Both the position numbers and the translations under genes were made by a program. The notes below the pieces were generated by a model that worked only from the letters and a program-made list of their open reading frames with translations, searched no databases and was not told the DNA's origin. DNA of 49,420 nt from Girardia tigrina (taxonomy: Eukaryota), in the NCBI GenBank assembly GCA_001938485.1, contig MQRK01170873.1:14585-64004 (forward strand). Direction: 5' to 3'. Of this stretch, positions 4,110 to 32,945 are shown in pieces (the stretch's first letter is position 1; the number at the start of each line of letters is the position of its first letter).

Positions 4110-5965
4110 AAATTTCTTTCATGAATGATATTTACGAGGAGAAGAGGAATCATAGCGTCTATCAAATGTCTGATGTCTATTCATTCACAAGCATTCAGTT
4201 CATATCTCATGCTTGCTACAAGTGAAGATCGAGAAGTGCGGGTGCTTGGGCTTAAAGTTTTTCAAAAAGGTTATTTGTTGAAATGGAAAAGAGATAATCA
4301 TATCAGAGAAATTACCGATATCGCGTCTTTATCACACCGCGATTTATATTCAATTTGCAGACAGTTAGTAGGCATCTACCCGGTGGCGGGATGGCTGCGT
4401 CCGACTTGTTCTTATATGAAACGCCTCAGTGAGGGCAACTGAGAGGACAAAGTGGGAGAAGAGATAATAGAAAAAGTCAAGTGGGTGATGAGAAGAGTCG
4501 AGGAAGCCGACCCGTGCAAGGGGGAATGGTTTATAAATAACTGTGAAGAAGGAATTTTATGGTGTGATGCGAGTTCGATTGCGATTGGCGTTGTGCTCGA
4601 GGTCAAGGGTCAGACAATCGAAGATGCATCATGGTTAAGGAAAACAGACGACTCCCATCATATATATTTAGCTGAACTGGAAGCTGTAGTAAAAGGTTTA
4701 AATTTATGTATTAAATGGGGGATGAAAAGGGTAATAGTTAAATCGGACAACAAGTCGGTCCTATCCTGGATATCCACGGTGTTAGCGTTTCGTGAGAAAT
4801 TGTGTACAAGAGCGTTTAGTGAACTGTTGATTAAAAGAAGATTGGCGATCATTAAAAAGTTATGTCAAGAATATCAAATGGAAGTGACGATTGAATTTGT
4901 GTACAACGAGAAGAATCGGGTGGACGAGTTGACAAGAGTACTAAATAGAGTAAAACAGAGTAATTGTTGTTTATTAATTTCAGGTAGTCGCGATAGTCTT
5001 GTGGAACTTCACAACAAATGTCATCTGGGAGCAAGAAGGATGCAGTACTTATGTAAAAAACTGAACATTGATGCATCAAATACGGACATTAAAAAATTAA
5101 TTTCTAGATGTCAACAATGTCAATCGATTAACCCAGCGCCGATAAAATGGAAAGAGGGAACGCTGAATGTTAGTGAAATTTGGACGAGATTAGCCATAGA
5201 TGTTACGAAATATAATCAGAGGAAGTATTTGAGTATTATCGATTGTCGTCCGTCACGTTTCGCAATTTGGAAGCTGATTAGATCGGAGGGTGCTGATTCG
5301 ATTATCTCGGAAATAGCAAGTGTATTTTCTGAACACGGTACGCCTCAAGAACTACTAGTCGATAATTATAGTTCGTTTACCATTATTTTTTCTTAGGTTA
5401 ATGAAAAAATGGAATGTTGAAGTCATTTATCGGGCCGTAAATAGACAAAATTGCAACGGTATTATATAGTGAAATCATAGAACGGTCAAGAGAATAGCGT
5501 GTCGTTCTAATATATACATTTTAGAAGCCGTATGGTGGTACAATAATACTCCTTTCGACAATAAGCAGCCGCCGAGTCTGAAGATGTATAATTATATACC
5601 AACTGGATTAGAATCGCTAAGAAAGACAGTTAGAACGGAGAACGTAGAGCGGTCAAAATTTGTAGAAAACCATCTGGTGTGGATATAACCGAATCAAAGT
5701 ACACCTTGTACACGAAAGTGGATGACGAGGACGGTGGTGAAACGATTAGATTCGGTAAAGTTTTTGATTAATTGTAATGGTTTTTGTAGCCCGCGGCATG
5801 TTGCGGATATTAGACCGCGACAACCGGATCAAACCCCGGCGCTGAGTCTAGAGTTCGGGAATGATGATGACGACGAGTCGGCAAAAGAGAGAAATTAGAA
5901 ACCTGAAAGAGTGCGACCACGATGGGAAACACGCCGATAAGCCTACCTCGATGATTTTATTGTTA
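4110..5965 (+). mobile_element. Ty3/gypsy LTR retrotransposon pol remnant (RT C-terminus, RNase H, integrase), with stops and frameshifts
   Basis: RNase H: WCDASSIAIGVVL, AELEAVVKGL, KSDNKSV. Integrase HHCC: HNKCHLG...CQQCQ. Integrase core: LAIDVT...IIDC.PSRFAIW...HGTPQELLVDN, continuing after a frameshift as NGII**NHRTVK...AVWWYNNTP. Domain order is RH then IN. Confidence 0.92.
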
Positions 5966-5974
5966 ATGGGACGA

Positions 5975-6210
5975 ATCGGTGGGCGGTGGTGCATGGTCAT
6001 TTTTAGTTGGTGGAGCTATTTTTCTGGTTAATTCCGTTAACGAACGAGACTCTCACCTGCTAAATAGTACATTTGTGTTAAATCGCAAATGCTGACTTCT
6101 TAGAGGAATAAATAGCGTTTAGCTAAATGAAATGGAGCAATAACAGGTCTGTGATGCCCTTAGATGTCCGGGGCCGCACGTGCGCTACAATGGCAGTACC
6201 AGTGAGTTTT
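5975..6210 (+). pseudogene. Eukaryotic 18S rRNA fragment (3' major domain), mutated orphan copy
   Basis: Universal SSU motifs GGTGGTGCATGG, TTAGTTGGTGGAG, CTGGTTAATTCCG.TAACGAACGAGAC, CTTCTTAGAGG and GCAATAACAGGTCTGTGATGCCCTTAGATGTCCGGGGCCGCACG.GCGCTACA. It is only ~235 nt, with substitutions at conserved sites. Confidence 0.95.
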
Positions 6211-12519: not shown

Positions 12520-13090
12520 TCGTAGAGGTGGGACTGCAAATATTCCTTTGGAATCACGTGGTGTAACAAATAAATTCGTCACCGTACATTGCCTCTTAGC
12601 TTACCAACCCGAGGAAGTGTCATTGATTAAGGGAACTTAACGTTTTACCAGGGTCATTTGTAAAATTAAAATAAATTAATGTTTTAAAATATAAATAAAA
12701 TAATTGCTCCCTCATCATGGCCATCTCTATAAGCGGACCATTACATTTTATGGTTGGTAGTGTGAATCGAGACAATTATAAAAAATTACTTTTTTTTAAC
12801 TCATCCACCACCTTCCTTTCACCAAACATTATTTGATACATAACAACGCCTTTATTCACACAGGAATTGTCACGCTGAACCATATGTAAGTGGTTCATTT
12901 GCCCCCATATTCCCTATTCTTAAACCCCATCGAATTAGTTTTCAGTAAACTAAAGAGAAGTATTCGATCGACGTTAACATTTGTGTCAGGAATTTCAGAC
13001 ATGAGTCCGTCTCAGAGACAGAACCTGTAGTCAGACTTAAAAAGTATTCTAACTTTAAGAATATTATCACCACATTAAAAATTTTTTTCC
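12520..13090 (+). mobile_element. IS630/Tc1-like (DDE_3) transposase remnant
   Basis: NCSLIMAISISG...LIHNNAFIH...VHLPPYSLFLNPIELVFSKLKRSIR carries the DNA.FH and LPPYSP.LNPIE signatures. Confidence 0.88.
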
Positions 13091-13889: not shown

Positions 13890-14565
13890 AATTCTTAAAA
13901 ATTCATAATCGTATTTCCTGTTTTATTTTTTAATGGAAAAACTCAAGCATATTTTGTATATAAATCTATAATTGTTAAAATATATTTATAATCTTCTTTT
14001 TTCATTTCAACTAAATCCGCTCCCCAAATATCATCTTTATTAAAAACTTTAATTTTTAAAAAAGTTTTTAGGTTTTCTGTATTCTTTATGTAATTCATCT
14101 TTATTTAAATAACCACCGAAGGTAGGACTTTGTCCGCCACCAAACATAATTTTTAACTTCATTGCATTTTTTACAAGCATTCTAGCAATTATTTCTCCAA
14201 TGGTTGGCTTTTTAATTTCATTTAAATCTTGAATTAAATCAATATCTGCTTTTTGTCTTGAACGAATATCTTCATTTTTATAAGCAATATCATGTTTTAA
14301 TGTTGCTTCATCAACACGATTTATTGGTTCTTCTCCAGGATTTGGATTATTATTTTTATCTAATCTGATGTCTAAACGTGTTCTTGGTCCAGCATAAGCG
14401 TAGCCCGGAAGATGGTGTTCTCCTTTATAGTTTGACCATTTTGGTAATTTTTGAAAGTGTTTGAAGATCTCCTTGTTTTGTAATATGTTTTTGTGTTTTC
14501 TCATGTTTAGCTTTGTTAGATTTTGAAATGTATTTTTCACATGAGTTACAAAAATATTTAGTCAT
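13890..14565 (-). mobile_element. Polinton/Maverick (adintovirus) ORF: C2H2 zinc finger + parvovirus-type PLA2 + retroviral-like integrase N-terminal part, frameshifted
   Basis: ATG at 14565 gives MTKYFCNSCEKYISKSNKAKHEKTQKH. Then HLPGYAYAGPRTRL...PINRVDEATLKHDIAY...RQKAD (PLA2 Ca-loop and HD motif). Then ELHKEYRK / KIKVFNKDDIWGADLVEMKKEDYKYILTIIDLYTKYA*VFPLKNKTG (Polinton integrase). Confidence 0.92.
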
Positions 14566-14619: not shown

Positions 14620-14890
14620 ATAATCAAATTTTACAACCGTGTTGTAATCTAAGAAAAGTTTAAACTTTATCATTTCAACATGTTTTCGTTAGTATAATAA
14701 TCAAATTTTACAACGGTGTTGTAATCTAAAAATAGATAATTTTTACAACGCCGTTGTAATCTAAAAAATAAATAATTTTTATATAAAATATTTTGATAAT
14801 TGATTTTTATTTAATAAAACTATAACAACATAATAATCAAGTAAACTATCAAATTTTACAACAGTGTTGTAATCTAAAAATAGATAATTT
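14620..14890. repeat. Four copies of the palindrome TTACAAC-nnn-GTTGTAA within a ~35-bp repeat unit
   Basis: TTTTACAAC(CGT/GGT/GCC/AGT)GTTGTAATCTAA at ~14630, ~14706, ~14742 and ~14854. Confidence 0.9.
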
Positions 14891-14892
14891 GT

Positions 14893-15660
14893 TCATACAT
14901 TTCGCCAATATGTTGGATCATCTTCCAAGATTTCACAGATGAGCCTCCAATTAGCTTGTACATATCTAATTGGGACACCGAGATATTGTAATCTGGGGAA
15001 ATCGCTTGCTTTCTTATACAATTTTCTAAGAAAATATGTCATTGATATTTTATATTCAATTAGTTTGGAATTAAAATGGTATTTAAATGCCAATCCTTGG
15101 TTTTCACAAGTTTCTTTGATTGAATTAAAATAACCCCCTGAAAGAATATAATAATATAATACTTCCACTTGTTTTTGCTTTATTTTCTCAGCAAGTTCTT
15201 GAATTTTTTTTAATTGAATCATCCATTTCGAGATCATAATTTGCATCAAGAATAGTATTATCATATTGTANNNNNNNNNNNNNNNNNNNNNNNNNNNNNN
15301 NNNNNNNNNNNNNNNNNNNNNNNNNNNNNNNNNNNNNNNNNNNNNNNNNNNNNNNNNNNNNNNNNNNNNNNNNNNNNNNNNNNNNNNNNNNNNNNNNNNN
15401 NNNNNNNNNNNNNNNNNNNNNNNNNGTTGATTTATTATTTTCTAATTTCTTTTTTATTTTATTTTGCTTTTCTTCTTGTAATTTACTAATATATGCTATA
15501 TTTGTAAATTGTGGCACTAATAAATTCTTCTTTTAAATAAATATTACATTCTTCTCTTAATTCTGGGATCACATATTTATCCAATAAAGTTTGAAAAATA
15601 TTTTTTAAACCTAATATAAATTTCTTCTTTTCCTCAAAACTATTTTGTTTCTTCATTTTC
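14893..15660 (-). pseudogene. Hypothetical Polinton accessory ORF(s), interrupted by an N-gap
   Basis: Lys/Ile-rich intronless ORFs co-oriented with and adjacent to the PLA2-integrase ORF (…LQYLGVPIRYVQANWRLICEILEDDPTYWRNV). No recognisable domain. Confidence 0.45.
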
Positions 15661-15689
15661 TTTTACTAAAAAAAGAAACAAATATAATA

Positions 15690-17030
15690 AAATATGATTA
15701 AATAGGATGACTGTAGAATTTCATTATTTATTTTAGAAATAATATTAAAATTATATCTCTAAACTAAATAATATTATATTCTTAATAAATTAAAATAAAA
15801 TATAATTAAATAGGATGACTGTAGAATTTCATTATTTATTTTAGAAATAATATTAAAATTATATCTGTTAAGAATTGATAAAGGAAAAAAATATATGTAT
15901 TTAATTTTTATTAAAATTTAAAAATTAAAAGGTAAAAAAATTTATATATATTTATAAAATTTTTGAATTATAATTAAAAAGAGAAAAATACAGTTTAATT
16001 ATTCTGGAATGTTGTTTAAATGTATCAATTTAAATGAATCTTGCGTGACTGTTGTGGCCTCAGTTTTCAATCAATAAAAGATATTTTATTTCGTTTACTC
16101 TATTCAAATTTGATAGTGATTTTGATTCCTATTGTTGAATTATATTGTCAACTCTGATTTGATTTTTAAACGATTTAAAGATAATTGTCTTGAAACAGAA
16201 AATTCGATAGCGATGAATTTCGATTTGATTGTGCAGAGAAATTTGCCGTATGACTTTCACGAGTTATCGACCGACAAAAAGATGAAGCGAATCGATGAGA
16301 TGCAGCACGTGCACCTCGATAGAGAGAAAATCACGAGGATCGAGAATACAGAGATGCTGTCGAGTGGCGTCACGCATCTGTATTTGCATCACAATCGAAT
16401 TGAAAGAATCCAAAATCTCGACGGTCTCGTCAATCTACGATGTATCATGCTATCGGATAATTTGATCGGGACCATCGAGAATATTTAAGGTTTTAAGAAA
16501 CTGAAAATACTCGATCTTTCTTTCAATCGGATCGAGGAGATTAGCTCCAAAAATAAATCAAATAAAACGATAAACGATCGATTGTTCGATAAAGACATCG
16601 ATCATTTCTCTTCAACAGACTCAGGGAAAACGAAAGACAACTCGAATAAACCCGCTAAATCGGTTCTCAAGTCGCTCTTAAATCCCTCAAAAGAACTCAG
16701 TGACATTTCGTTTCTCTTCGACAAATCACAATCGCAATTCGATCTCAAAACGAACTCGATCGATAAATCTGCACCGACAAATGCGTTCAAAACCGAATAT
16801 CAACCGTCGACTGGCAATCCGAAGACATCTCTATGGGCCCAGATGCTCACTTCTGTGGGGAAATTTGGAAACAATATCTCTAAACTAAATAAATATTATA
16901 TTCTTAATAAATTAAAATAAAATATAATTAAATAGGGTGGCTGTAGAATTTCATTATTTATTTTAGAAATAATATTAAAATTATATCTCTAAAATAAATA
17001 ATATTATATTCTTAATAAATTAAAATAAAA
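15690..17030. repeat. 108-bp tandem repeat array split by a ~1-kb insertion
   Basis: The unit core AATAGGATGACTGTAGAATTTCATTATTTATTTTAGAAATAATATTAAAATTATATCT occurs at ~15701, ~15809 and ~16931. The array breaks after ATATCT (15861-15866) and resumes in register at ATATCT (16874-16879). Confidence 0.9.
16213..16875 (+). pseudogene. LRRC46: LRRC46-like leucine-rich-repeat gene fragment with in-frame TAA, 3'-truncated
   Basis: LIVQRNLP...HVHLDREKITRIEN...THLYLHHNRIERIQNLDGLVNLRCIMLSDNLIGTIENI*GFKKLKILDLSFNRIEEI. SDS22-like LRRs, with an N-terminus resembling LRRC46 (LITKRNL...VRLDREGITTIRN). ORFs 16132 and 16582 are in the same frame. Confidence 0.72.
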
Positions 17031-17437
17031 TCAACTTACTGATTCAATAGATCAATTATTTTAAATAATTAACACTATTGCTATTCACAACTAATTGCTT
17101 AGTTATTGGAATAGTTAAAAAAAATTATATTTTTATTAAAATTTTTTTACATAATCATTTTTTTTATTTGGGGAATTGTGATCTTTAGAGTTTTCATGAG
17201 ATTTTAAAGCTGATGGTTTTAGAAAAGATTTTTAACAAAGTCTACAAAATAAATCTTCGCTGGTACTCGACATTTTTTTCGCCCTTTTTTACTATTTTTT
17301 TATTTTATTAATGAGTTTTTTTTATAATTTTGGAAGGTGATTTTTGTATCTTTTTTTATTTTTCATGAAATTTTAAGGATTTTAGGGTAAAAGAATGTGA
17401 ATCTTATATTGAGATTTTTGTTTAACCAAGATGCTGT

Positions 17438-26440: not shown

Positions 26441-26704
26441 ATTATGATCTGTTTATAAAAACAAATATTAAAAAAATGGATTTCTAGTGTTGGGGAATAG
26501 TTTTAATTTTTGTTTTTTTTTTAAAAAAAATATAAAGGAATAAATTAATTAACATACTTTTGTGTTGCATAAAAATAAATGATCATAAGAATCATAATGG
26601 ATTGACAAAAGCATTAGGCAAATTAAATCCATCGGATGAAGACATGGATGAAATTCTCCACGGTGAATCTTGAGACAGCACAAAAGATTGACAGGATTAA
26701 ACAA

Positions 26705-27020
26705 TTTACGAATCTTTTCTCCAAATTCTCCAGTTCTTTCGAATGGCTATACCATCGGTTCTTGTAGTTCGGACGATTGGCAACGTCAAATGCATTAATT
26801 TCAAGCTCCATTGTTTGAAGCAGATCCTTTGCATCGACAAACAAGATCTCGATTTTTATGTGTTTTTGAGAATCATTTGATTTCATATCCACATTTTTGT
26901 GGCATTCGATTATACCTCTGAGATAAGTAATGAGCTGACCGAAGCAATAAGTTATTTCACTAGTTATATTTCCATATTGTTTTTTTCGTGGTTTTCATGA
27001 ATCGAAGGCATTTTTGACAT
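26705..27020 (-). pseudogene. VTI1A: VTI1-like SNARE N-terminal (Habc) exon with frameshift
   Basis: HE/KQYGNITSEIT...EILFVDAKDLLQTMELEINAFDVANRPNYKNRWYSHSKELENLEKRF aligns with VTI1A EQDFAVLTAEIT...EEAKELLEQMDLEVREIPPQSRGMYSNRMRSYKQEMGKLETDF. Similarity ends at a GTAAAT donor-like site. Confidence 0.8.
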
Positions 27021-28975: not shown

Positions 28976-29182
28976 TCACTGGGGTTCTCCGTCGACCCAC
29001 GTTATTTTAATATTCTGACAGGGTTTGTCCTGAACTATTTTTAGTTTTTTATCTGAGGCTAGTTGAAGGAGGGTGAAAAATTTGGATGATGCCTCTCTTT
29101 TCGATATGTCATTATTTCCTACTATCGTTGTGGTAAAGTCGACCTCTTCATTGTTGTGGATGGCGCAGTTTAGAATAATTCT
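28976..29182 (-). CDS. Rad21/Rec8 kleisin C-terminal winged-helix exon (probably pseudogenic copy; possible upstream exons to ~29790)
   Basis: RIILNCAIHNNEEVDFTTTIVGNNDISKREASSKFFTLLQLASDKKLKIVQDKPCQNIKITWVDGEPQ* matches Rad21 [36 protein letters not shown]. It is missing from the ORF track because it has no start codon. Confidence 0.8.
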   Translation of the reverse strand, partial: RIILNCAIHNNEEVDFTTTIVGNNDISKREASSKFFTLLQLASDKKLKIVQDKPCQNIKITWVDGEPQ

Positions 29183-29794
29183 CGATTAATTCAATAAATT
29201 TTTCATTTTTAAAAGATAAAGTTAAATTCTTCGATGAATTTGAAAAGTAATTCTCTACAAGTCGTCTCATGAATTGAATTCTTATCACTCCAATTTTATT
29301 TTGTCACACCGTGAGAATTTTTATCATAGAACACACACAAACAGACATTATAATTAAAATCAAACTATTTTGTAAAGCTTGACATCGATCAATAAATTTT
29401 GAATACAAGAATACAAAAGTACTTTTTGAAAAATTGATTAATTCAAAGTTTGAGTGGTTTTCCAGAAATTGGGATTGATCTTGATAAATTCCTGAGAGCA
29501 GAGATCTGCTATTAAATGAATACAGCAACATGGATTTTAAAATGCTAATATTTTGGGCGTGTTGGACTTTTACAAATCTACTGTTACAAAGGCGATGAAG
29601 TGATATCAAGAGTTAGGAAATTACGTGGATCAACTGGAGTAGGCCTCCCATCTCTTTCGAATGGTATTGAGCCACTAGGCTCTTTAGAGGGTTCACCCAA
29701 ACAAAAGAGTGCTAGCTGCTCTCCGATAGGCCTCCTACGGTAACGGAGTGCTTCAGTCTCCGAAATTTCTTGGGCTTCCCTGTTGCAAACGACC

Positions 29795-32218: not shown

Positions 32219-32581
32219 TAATTAAAAATGTACCATAGTCGACAGTTTAGGTCCCAGACAAGCACTGTTTTGTTGATTCGAATTTGAGACCGATTTCTTC
32301 AATAGTTTGAAGTTTTAAATTCATGATAATTAACGTTTTAATCAATATAACTTTGAATTAAATAAAGAAATTTCCGTGAAACTTTATTTTCTTACACTTT
32401 TTACCAAAAATGGCGACTTTTTCAAATAAATAACAAATATTTTCGCGCCAAATAAAATTATAATGCTTGATTAAAACAAGTCGAAAATATATCAAAAAAT
32501 AAAAAATAATAATAAAACACAATTTCGAATCATTCCCAGATTGGCTGATCCCGATTTGATCTATTTTTAGATTGGCCAATC

Positions 32582-32945
32582 ATGGGTCATTTATTAATAG
32601 ATCGACTCGAAATTTGTTAAATCGATTCCGAACGAATCGATTTTCGGATATTAATTGTGAAAATGTTGACAAACATGTGGTGAGAATCGTATTGAATAAT
32701 GTCAAACGTCACAATTCGTTATCTCTGAATTTTATAACTGAACTCGAGAATCATTTGCGCGGAATCGAGCAATCGAACAAGCCAATAAGACCGACATTAG
32801 GGCTGTCATCATTAAGTCGTCGAGTCGCACGTTTTCCAGTGGACATGATTTACGAGAATTTGATGAGAACGATTGTGAGCAACATCGAGAGATATTCGAT
32901 AAGGCGAGTTCGCTCATGAAATCGATTGCACACGCTCGTTGCTGT
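32582..32945 (+). pseudogene. ECHDC3: ECHDC3-like enoyl-CoA hydratase 5' fragment, frameshifted
   Basis: VVRIVLNNVKRHNSLSLNFITEL / DIRAVIIKSSSRTFSSGHDLREF...HREIFDKASSLMKSI matches ECHDC3 (IRNIVLSNPKKRNTLSL...VFSSGHDLKEL...HAEVFQTCSKVM). The frameshift coincides with the 8-bp duplication AATCGAGC-AATCGAAC. Confidence 0.85.

Follow-up and report, generated by a model that had tools for sequence, protein, structure and literature searches.

A gene remnant on the minus strand (14565-13901) of a 49,420-nucleotide stretch of Girardia tigrina DNA, hereafter the window, has three parts: a U1-type C2H2 zinc finger, a parvovirus-type phospholipase A2 (PLA2) domain and the first part of an rve integrase of the Polinton type. 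In intact relatives, the PLA2 and integrase parts are read from a single ORF with intact catalytic residues and conserved motifs at the junctions, and a protease gene lies beside a close relative. The PLA2-integrase fusion is almost certainly real, and the fusion gene very probably belongs to a Polinton-type virus. With more reserve, we favor a reading in which the product is a virion precursor that is cut by the element's protease and delivers both PLA2 and integrase.

The gene copy in the window

The window copy is spread over three minus-strand frames: the first holds the finger, the second the PLA2 domain with the residues ELHKEYRKP and the third the integrase core. A start codon (ATG, 14565-14563) opens the finger leader, in which a C-x2-C-x11-H-x5-H motif (C-N-S-C-x11-H-x5-H, 14485-14550) matches Pfam zf-U1 (E-value: 2.8e-5, 24.2 bits, cut-off 22). 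The junction of leader and PLA2 (site 1, 14467-14478) reads K-Q-G-D, with a single Gly where relatives have Gly-Gly-Asp, and the first frame change follows at approximately 14450-14456. The PLA2 domain (14181-14417) is of the parvovirus VP1u type and matches Phospholip_A2_4 (PF08398; E-value: 2.3e-9, 37.8 bits, above the curated cut-off of 23.9). Its calcium loop reads Y-A-G-P-R (14396-14382), the Arg at the last place being absent from 111/111 relatives, and both the catalytic H-D-x-x-Y (14294-14280) and the downstream Asp (14246-14244) are present. The PLA2 frame reads on through KIMFGGGQSPTFGGY to ELHK. Along it lie a candidate maturation-protease site at the PLA2/integrase junction (site 2, K-L-K-I-M-F-G-G-G, 14133-14159, with MFGG at 14147-14136) and a second linker GG (TFGG, 14112-14123); the frame passes KLKIMFGGGQSPTFGGY into the integrase N-terminus ELHKEYRKP (14055-14096, ELH at 14096-14088), where the second frame change occurs (~14068-14055). 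The catalytic-core fragment (13901-14068) contains the first Asp of the integrase in WGAD (14026-14015) and has in-frame stops at 13945-13943 and 13897-13895. Similarity to relatives ends at ~13901, before the second Asp and the Glu. This fragment falls below the cut-off for Pfam rve (E-value: 0.01) and matches our own integrase profile with an E-value of 5.8e-18.

Both frame changes sit beside A/T homopolymer runs, the first beside a run of A. The window copy is dead and cut short at its 3' end, and it most likely derives from a Polinton (Maverick/adintovirus-type) gene; its breaks are due to decay or assembly error. A first-pass annotation of this DNA had reported the three parts, and this observation is largely real: its motifs and coordinates are correct, the PLA2 domain is of the parvovirus-VP1 kind, and the finger does lie in a different frame from it. 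However, that annotation counted a single frameshift, overlooking the second one, the stop and the truncation, and its statement that PLA2 is in frame with the integrase start holds for ELHKEYRKP but not for the core. A reassigned host stop codon was considered but is not supported, as recognisable genes are broken by TGA as well as by TAA, and one host-like gene has a frame change too.

Four spaced palindromes, TTACAAC-N3-GTTGTAA, are located ~65-310 bp upstream of the ATG (14631-14872). These are the only four matches in the window, with 0.03 expected in shuffles. They are possible candidate binding sites of a dimeric protein and possibly represent a regulatory or terminal part of the element, to which they are assigned by position alone. 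Adjoining them is the remnant of an upstream ORF (14893-15270, minus strand), cut by a gap of Ns at 15271-15425, that may be part of the element. It has no Pfam match at E≤0.001 and no sequence homologue; its Atlas look-alikes (score 0.94-0.95) are unnamed proteins of 127-148 aa, and less strong leads point to helix-turn-helix proteins and to a family of translation repressors. Searches for terminal inverted repeats or target-site duplications flanking the gene gave AT-rich matches of 70-86% and no convincing pair.

The gene sits in a degraded eukaryotic scaffold that is AT-rich and carries remnants of retroelements and host genes. On the plus strand, a decayed LTR-retroelement pol (DUF7047, RNase H-like and integrase zinc domains; 4125-5396) is broken by stops, an isolated divergent eukaryotic SSU rRNA fragment lies at 5908-6186 (best Rfam model microsporidian, 72 bits, and not necessarily the host's), a Tc1-type DDE_3 transposase fragment lies at 12890-13027, and a leucine-rich-repeat gene piece with an in-frame stop (16126-16920) is flanked by 129-nt direct repeats that are 93% identical (15680-15808 and 16910-17038). 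A nested inverted-repeat structure at 2031-2489 is MITE-like. Host-like pieces encode a v-SNARE (26626-26994, minus strand), Rad21/Rec8 (28979-29185, minus strand) and an enoyl-CoA hydratase (32560-32945, plus strand), the last of which shows a frame change near 32760 that no obvious intron explains.

Protease, capsid, ATPase and PolB genes were looked for in the window by tblastn with the proteins of L001 (a Polinton-type contig described below), by a protease profile run on 1121 ORF pieces (our own four-sequence profile, best E-value: 0.4) and by a Pfam scan of 133 ORF pieces, 131 of at least 60 aa, which shorter decayed pieces would escape; none turned up. With a truncated copy next to an assembly gap, the lack of these Polinton genes tells little.

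Intact relatives and known systems

P0002 (429 aa) carries finger, PLA2 and integrase in one chain, with 65% identity (P0002 residues 1-46), 76% identity and 89% identity (residues 171-227) to the finger, PLA2 and integrase pieces of the window, respectively. A search of longer proteins with the PLA2 piece gave 17 matches among 166 candidates, 15 of which contain both PF08398 and PF00665. A profile of 16 fusion proteins then gave 2159 matches at E≤1e-20. Both domains are present in 110 of the best 120 listed and, by our own profiles, in 34 of the top 150 representatives (50% identity), samples that are biased to fusions because the query had both domains. The fusion clusters contain repeated full-length members, and therefore the fusion is neither an artefact nor peculiar to the window's host; the arrangement, put forward as perhaps undescribed in this host lineage, is widespread. 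Some members come from megabase contigs and reach 300 copies, a pattern that would be expected for endogenous elements. Programmed frameshifting or separate genes for finger, PLA2 and integrase can be rejected as the normal state because the intact relatives are single ORFs.

Of the 123 distinct matches, 111 were aligned and 12 partial or frameshifted ones excluded. In the 111 fusions, the PLA2 catalytic residues are found in 111 (His), 110 (Asp), 111 (Tyr) and 111 (Asp) and the integrase DDE residues in 111, 111 and 110, and by these residues both enzymes look intact. A scan of the phage collection returned two weak integrase-only matches, and the plasmid collection returned none. In GTDB, 29 pattern matches led to two loci (L001 and L002), neither of which extends to PLA2. 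These stretches of Polinton-type viral DNA (L001 1-2472 and L002 1-1120) were found in archaeal and chlamydial MAG bins and are probably contamination.

Leader types among the 111 fusions are C2H2 (12), C4 ribbon (19), short (37), other (33) and none (10). In the integrase tree, all 12 C2H2 leaders group in a single branch of 15 rows (SH-aLRT 94), into which the window copy falls by identity. Judged from this distribution, the finger is a clade-specific, replaceable leader, not the core part of the polyprotein for which it had been taken. The idea that it is an HHCC domain of the integrase was also rejected, because the finger is a C2H2 of the U1 type, PLA2 lies between it and the core, and it is missing in 99/111 fusions. 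P0125 and P0130-P0142 are C4-ribbon (DUF5679)-PLA2-integrase-chromodomain proteins from contigs of up to several megabases (one cluster with n=300), apparently a multi-copy endogenous family. P0001, P0008, P0010, P0017 and P0046 have scattered short insertions that keep the reading frame and are rich in Gly, Pro, Ser and Ala; some of these resemble the GQSP linker of the window, and they may be small DNA elements that have inserted.

The AlphaFold model of P0002 has a pLDDT of 90 and a pTM of 0.67, and the only stretch below 50 is site 1. Its integrase fold matches that of foamy-virus integrase (VIA Z 20.8, rmsd 3.9, 253 aligned), and the best viral structural match of the model is the MELD virus integrase. 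Together with the 89% identity noted above and a Pfam rve match in P0002 with an E-value of 7.7e-15, these fold matches identify a Polinton-type rve integrase. No secreted-PLA2 structure was among the matches listed in whole-model fold searches, where the integrase dominates. The fusions show weak sequence matches to parvovirus capsid chains (E-value: 0.02). At the C-terminal end, 99/111 fusions stop at an ELQ motif and 12/111 have a tail of chromodomain length; no chromodomain is present in P0002 or P0007, the closest intact relatives, and the window copy is truncated.

Like the PLA2 of the parvovirus VP1 unique region (PF08398), the fused domain has a Y-x-G-P calcium loop, H-D-x-x-Y and a downstream Asp, and the catalytic His-Asp, Tyr and Asp are present in the window copy and in 110-111 of the 111 relatives. 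It differs in that it is tethered to an integrase and not to a jelly-roll capsid protein. As described in parts of two papers, alpha adintovirus encodes PLA2X, which has a pX-like domain at its C-terminus, and its integrase in two different genes (PMC8502044), and the PLA2 'CAP' and the integrase of the Sf Maverick are separate ORFs (PMC5803895). These systems share with the fusions a parvovirus VP1-type PLA2 in a Polinton, with a proposed role in membrane disruption at entry, and an element with adenain and rve integrase. In contrast to PLA2X, the PLA2 described here lacks a pX tail and is joined to the integrase: no Adeno_PX match was found in the fusions scanned by Pfam, PLA2 runs on into the integrase, and the pX-type gene of L001 is separate. 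The integrase resembles the Polinton/Maverick c-integrase in its ELH start, DDE core and foamy-virus-integrase-like fold, while the window clade adds an N-terminal PLA2 and leader and has no chromodomain. A C-terminal chromodomain is called distinctive of adintovirus integrases in a passage of PMC11071296, a paper that elsewhere mentions potential hexon-adenain fusions; P0002 and P0007 lack this feature. The gene is most likely a Polinton gene, although most of the features that define such elements were not found in the window, and it is distinct both from PLA2X and from the adintovirus integrases with a chromodomain.

In the literature searched, neither the PLA2-integrase nor the protease-integrase fusion is described; the fusion may be noted elsewhere, such as in subscription papers, Repbase annotations, figures or supplements. 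Specifically, the fusion is not described in the relevant passages of PMC3671162, PMC4642659, PMC11296320, PMC11161782, PMC11071296, PMC5803895, PMC7998265, 10.1101/341131, 10.64898/2026.10.13.758929, 10.64898/2026.06.19.733378 and 10.1101/2023.08.22.554363, or in the text of PMC8502044 (section 3.2 and passages), the supplement of which could still show or list it.

Glycine motifs and an indirect protease link

A glycine motif is found on each side of the PLA2 domain. Site 1, which the first-pass annotation missed, is equally conserved in relatives and reads Gly-Gly-Asp (G38 in 99/111, G39 in 91/111 and D40 in 98/111), with a GG/GxG core in 88 of the 101 fusions that have a leader and none in 13/101. 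At site 2, the first Gly is present in 110/111 relatives (ungapped reading), and this shared Gly is followed by another at +1 or +2 in 99/111 and by none there in 12/111. Besides the calcium loop, GG/GxG clusters only at these two PLA2 junctions (90 rows at position 38 and 99 at position 152); neighboring positions have it in 5-10 rows each, as against a background of 0.2% among 8-mers of the integrase part. The TFGG of the window was rejected as a second conserved site, as a second linker GG occurs in 3/17 close relatives (17 of 25 rows). Thus, among the GG sites of the earlier annotation, the motif directly after PLA2 is upheld and TFGG is not.

Adenain recognises (M/I/L)xGG-x and (M/I/L)xGx-G, the hyphen marking the cut, according to a passage of PMC7998265, and the two junction motifs appear to mirror these two site types. 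Site 2 of the window (MFGG-G) fits the strict consensus, as had been claimed. The relatives depart from it: a strict (M/I/L) P4 occurs in 15/111 at site 2 and 6/111 at site 1, P4 being mostly Lys/Arg/Tyr/His in the fusions versus Met/Ile/Leu in adenoviruses. The single MFGG match is weak evidence because (M/I/L)xGG occurs 20 times in the 98,836 six-frame codons of the window; the evidence for these candidate sites is their conservation in relatives. When site 2 is read as an adenain site (110 rows in register), P1' is Gly, Ala or Ser in each of the 91 rows whose P1 is not Gly, and P1 is Gly in each of the 12 whose P1' is bulky. This P1/P1' compensation has a Fisher p of 1.6e-7 if rows are independent, and a sign test on 11 independent pairs gives a median p of 0.22. 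Inside the fused integrases, GG/GxG is depleted (11 observed, 73.5 in shuffles), with a milder depletion in 106 integrases without PLA2 (73 observed, 112.8 in shuffles), both tests ignoring shared ancestry. From these patterns, cleavage at the Gly motifs is likely.

In the P0002 model, site 2 is located between two helices and the integrase fold begins directly after it, at residues 154-158. Stand-alone integrases often begin at this same point (65 representatives with <30 residues ahead of it). The linker after site 2 is 6 to 78 residues long.

It is unlikely that the chain stays uncut, with the Gly motifs acting as a helix cap and flexible turns, or persisting as relics of a stand-alone PLA2 gene that became joined to the integrase, and with PLA2 ferrying or tethering the integrase. 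Site 1 is kept although the leaders that precede it are unrelated, and leaderless fusions begin within a few residues of the Asp after site 1. Furthermore, GG/GxG is depleted inside the fused integrase, and a like motif stands ahead of the integrase when the partner is a protease and not PLA2 (see below). On the side of an uncut chain are the first Gly of site 2, which ends the long helix 132-152 and caps it in the model, the 11/110 rows that have only G-x-(A/S) at this site, the 14 rows with just 6 residues from the site 2 Gly to the conserved Glu of the integrase, the rarity of the strict adenain consensus and the independent-pairs test, which is not significant.

No protease gene was found in the window, as noted above; the adenain-like protease and pX-type gene come from L001 (VBPR01000135.1). 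This 2.5 kb contig encodes an integrase tail, a 161-aa protease, a pX-type protein and a 66-aa ORF end that may be the C-terminus of a major capsid protein (no Pfam match). It also encodes a 208-aa protein (580-1206) with hydrophobic stretches and no Gly motifs. The integrase tail is 89/87/83% identical to three PLA2 fusions and lacks a chromodomain. A four-sequence profile of the protease reaches adenain 1avp (E-value: 3.6e-4), the Pfam match is below cut-off, and the protease model is weak (pLDDT 59.5), with CE-clan matches at Z 4-6. The pX-type gene matches Adeno_PX below cut-off (E-value: 0.0019). Its product has Gly motifs of its own with Lys or a small residue at P4, one of them at the start of the Adeno_PX match, which fits a relaxed P4 in this group. 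The protease link to the window copy is indirect because L001 is of another subclade and is cut off before any PLA2.

A second type of fusion partner was found in 3/150 representatives. P0163, P0184 and P0153 join an adenain-like protease to integrase and chromodomain, with G-x-G or GG just ahead of the integrase; their protease has 34% identity to that of L001, and their clusters (70, 49 and 3 members, respectively) contain repeated full-length copies. At its N-terminus, P0184 additionally carries a C2H2-like finger. In P0287 the order is reversed (integrase-chromodomain-PLA2, with a G-x-G linker). This protein ends one residue past the site 2 Gly, where an xGx-G cut would end PLA2; this may be a cut-like PLA2 end or equally a truncation. 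On an integrase tree of 156 rows (11 partial ones dropped), the PLA2-integrase label needs 16 changes, a count that is inflated by truncated gene calls and covers gain and loss alike, and the fusions lie in separate lineages.

Proposed precursor maturation and integrase delivery

We infer a sequence of late synthesis, packaging, cleavage, PLA2-aided entry and integration by the delivered integrase. A single precursor, ordered as in the intact relatives (leader, site 1, PLA2, site 2, rve integrase), would most likely be made late and packaged into the particle. Motif conservation suggests that the adenain-like protease would cut site 1 between Gly-Gly and Asp and site 2 after Gly-Gly, or between Gly-x and Gly, with a relaxed and often basic P4. 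Cutting would take off the leader, here a nucleic-acid-binding finger that might, speculatively, aid packaging. By analogy with its family, the freed PLA2 would serve endosomal escape as in parvovirus VP1u, and the freed DDE integrase would insert the incoming genome ahead of new gene expression. For the packaging of integrase in the particle, we put the chances only slightly above even.

The proposed maturation resembles that of adenovirus pVI, pVII and pMu, in which the site types xGG-x and xGx-G flank the released module and the protease is packaged (PMC7998265, in part). It is unlike it in that P4 in the fusions is mostly Lys/Arg/Tyr/His and in that the candidate substrate includes an integrase, which adenoviruses lack. 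Adomavirus LO6, which has adenain-type motifs, was found cleaved in virions, as stated in a passage of 10.1101/341131.

A precursor could instead be cut in the cell to yield two proteins from one ORF, of which only PLA2 enters the particle, the cutter being the element's protease, the vOTU domain of its PolB or a host Ulp1/SENP-type enzyme. We consider this rather improbable. It is established that CE-clan and ubiquitin-like proteases recognise di-glycine, and the packaging of integrase is inferred rather than observed. In addition, the Polinton PolB vOTU protease has been proposed to process its own polyprotein (a passage of PMC11161782). However, adenain is packaged and is activated in the immature particle (PMC7998265, in part), the integrase partners seen, PLA2 and protease, are both presumed particle components, and PLA2 fusions have arisen or persisted in separate lineages of integrase, with the partners in either order. 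It is very unlikely that the zinc-finger clade is a capsid-less Polinton-derived transposon with finger and integrase as its working unit and PLA2 as baggage, as no other Polinton gene in the window and an integrase without a C-terminal chromodomain (99/111 end at the ELQ motif) might suggest: the finger clade keeps the PLA2 catalytic residues and both Gly motifs, the protease-linked L001 integrase also lacks a chromodomain, and absence from a truncated copy at an assembly gap says little.

In retroviral and Ty3 Gag-Pol, integrase is the C-terminal part of a precursor, is packaged via its structural partner and is freed by the element's own protease. The model of a cleaved virion precursor has the same elements, a C-terminal integrase, a particle partner and release by the element's protease, as an analogy and not as membership; it differs in that the virus has a dsDNA genome, the protease is a cysteine and not an aspartic one, and the carrier is an entry lipase or a protease. 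By these analogies, the gene most likely works like both an adenovirus-type precursor and retroviral Gag-Pol. A broader proposal, which we put forward tentatively and at slightly less than even odds, is that a Gag-Pol-like strategy has evolved repeatedly among dsDNA viruses of the Polinton type, with integrase fused to a particle protein, packaged and released at Gly-Gly/Gly-x-Gly by a protease that prefers a basic P4. In most cases seen, the fusion partner is the entry PLA2; in the others it is the maturation protease.

The window copy itself is a dead fragment, and its interest lies in the family behind it. According to a passage of a 2026 preprint (10.64898/2026.06.19.733378), no Maverick-Polinton virions have been observed. 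The family touches on several questions about Polintons: whether they form infectious particles, what their protease targets are and whether they integrate on entry. A widespread PLA2-integrase precursor with two Gly motifs offers a defined substrate with predicted cut sites and predicted mature ends. If the cleaved-precursor model is true, a dsDNA virus has converged on the retroviral way of integrase delivery, and an infecting particle could integrate its genome at once. The fusions would then also be the first defined natural substrates for the Polinton protease and would give a handle on the question of infectious particles.
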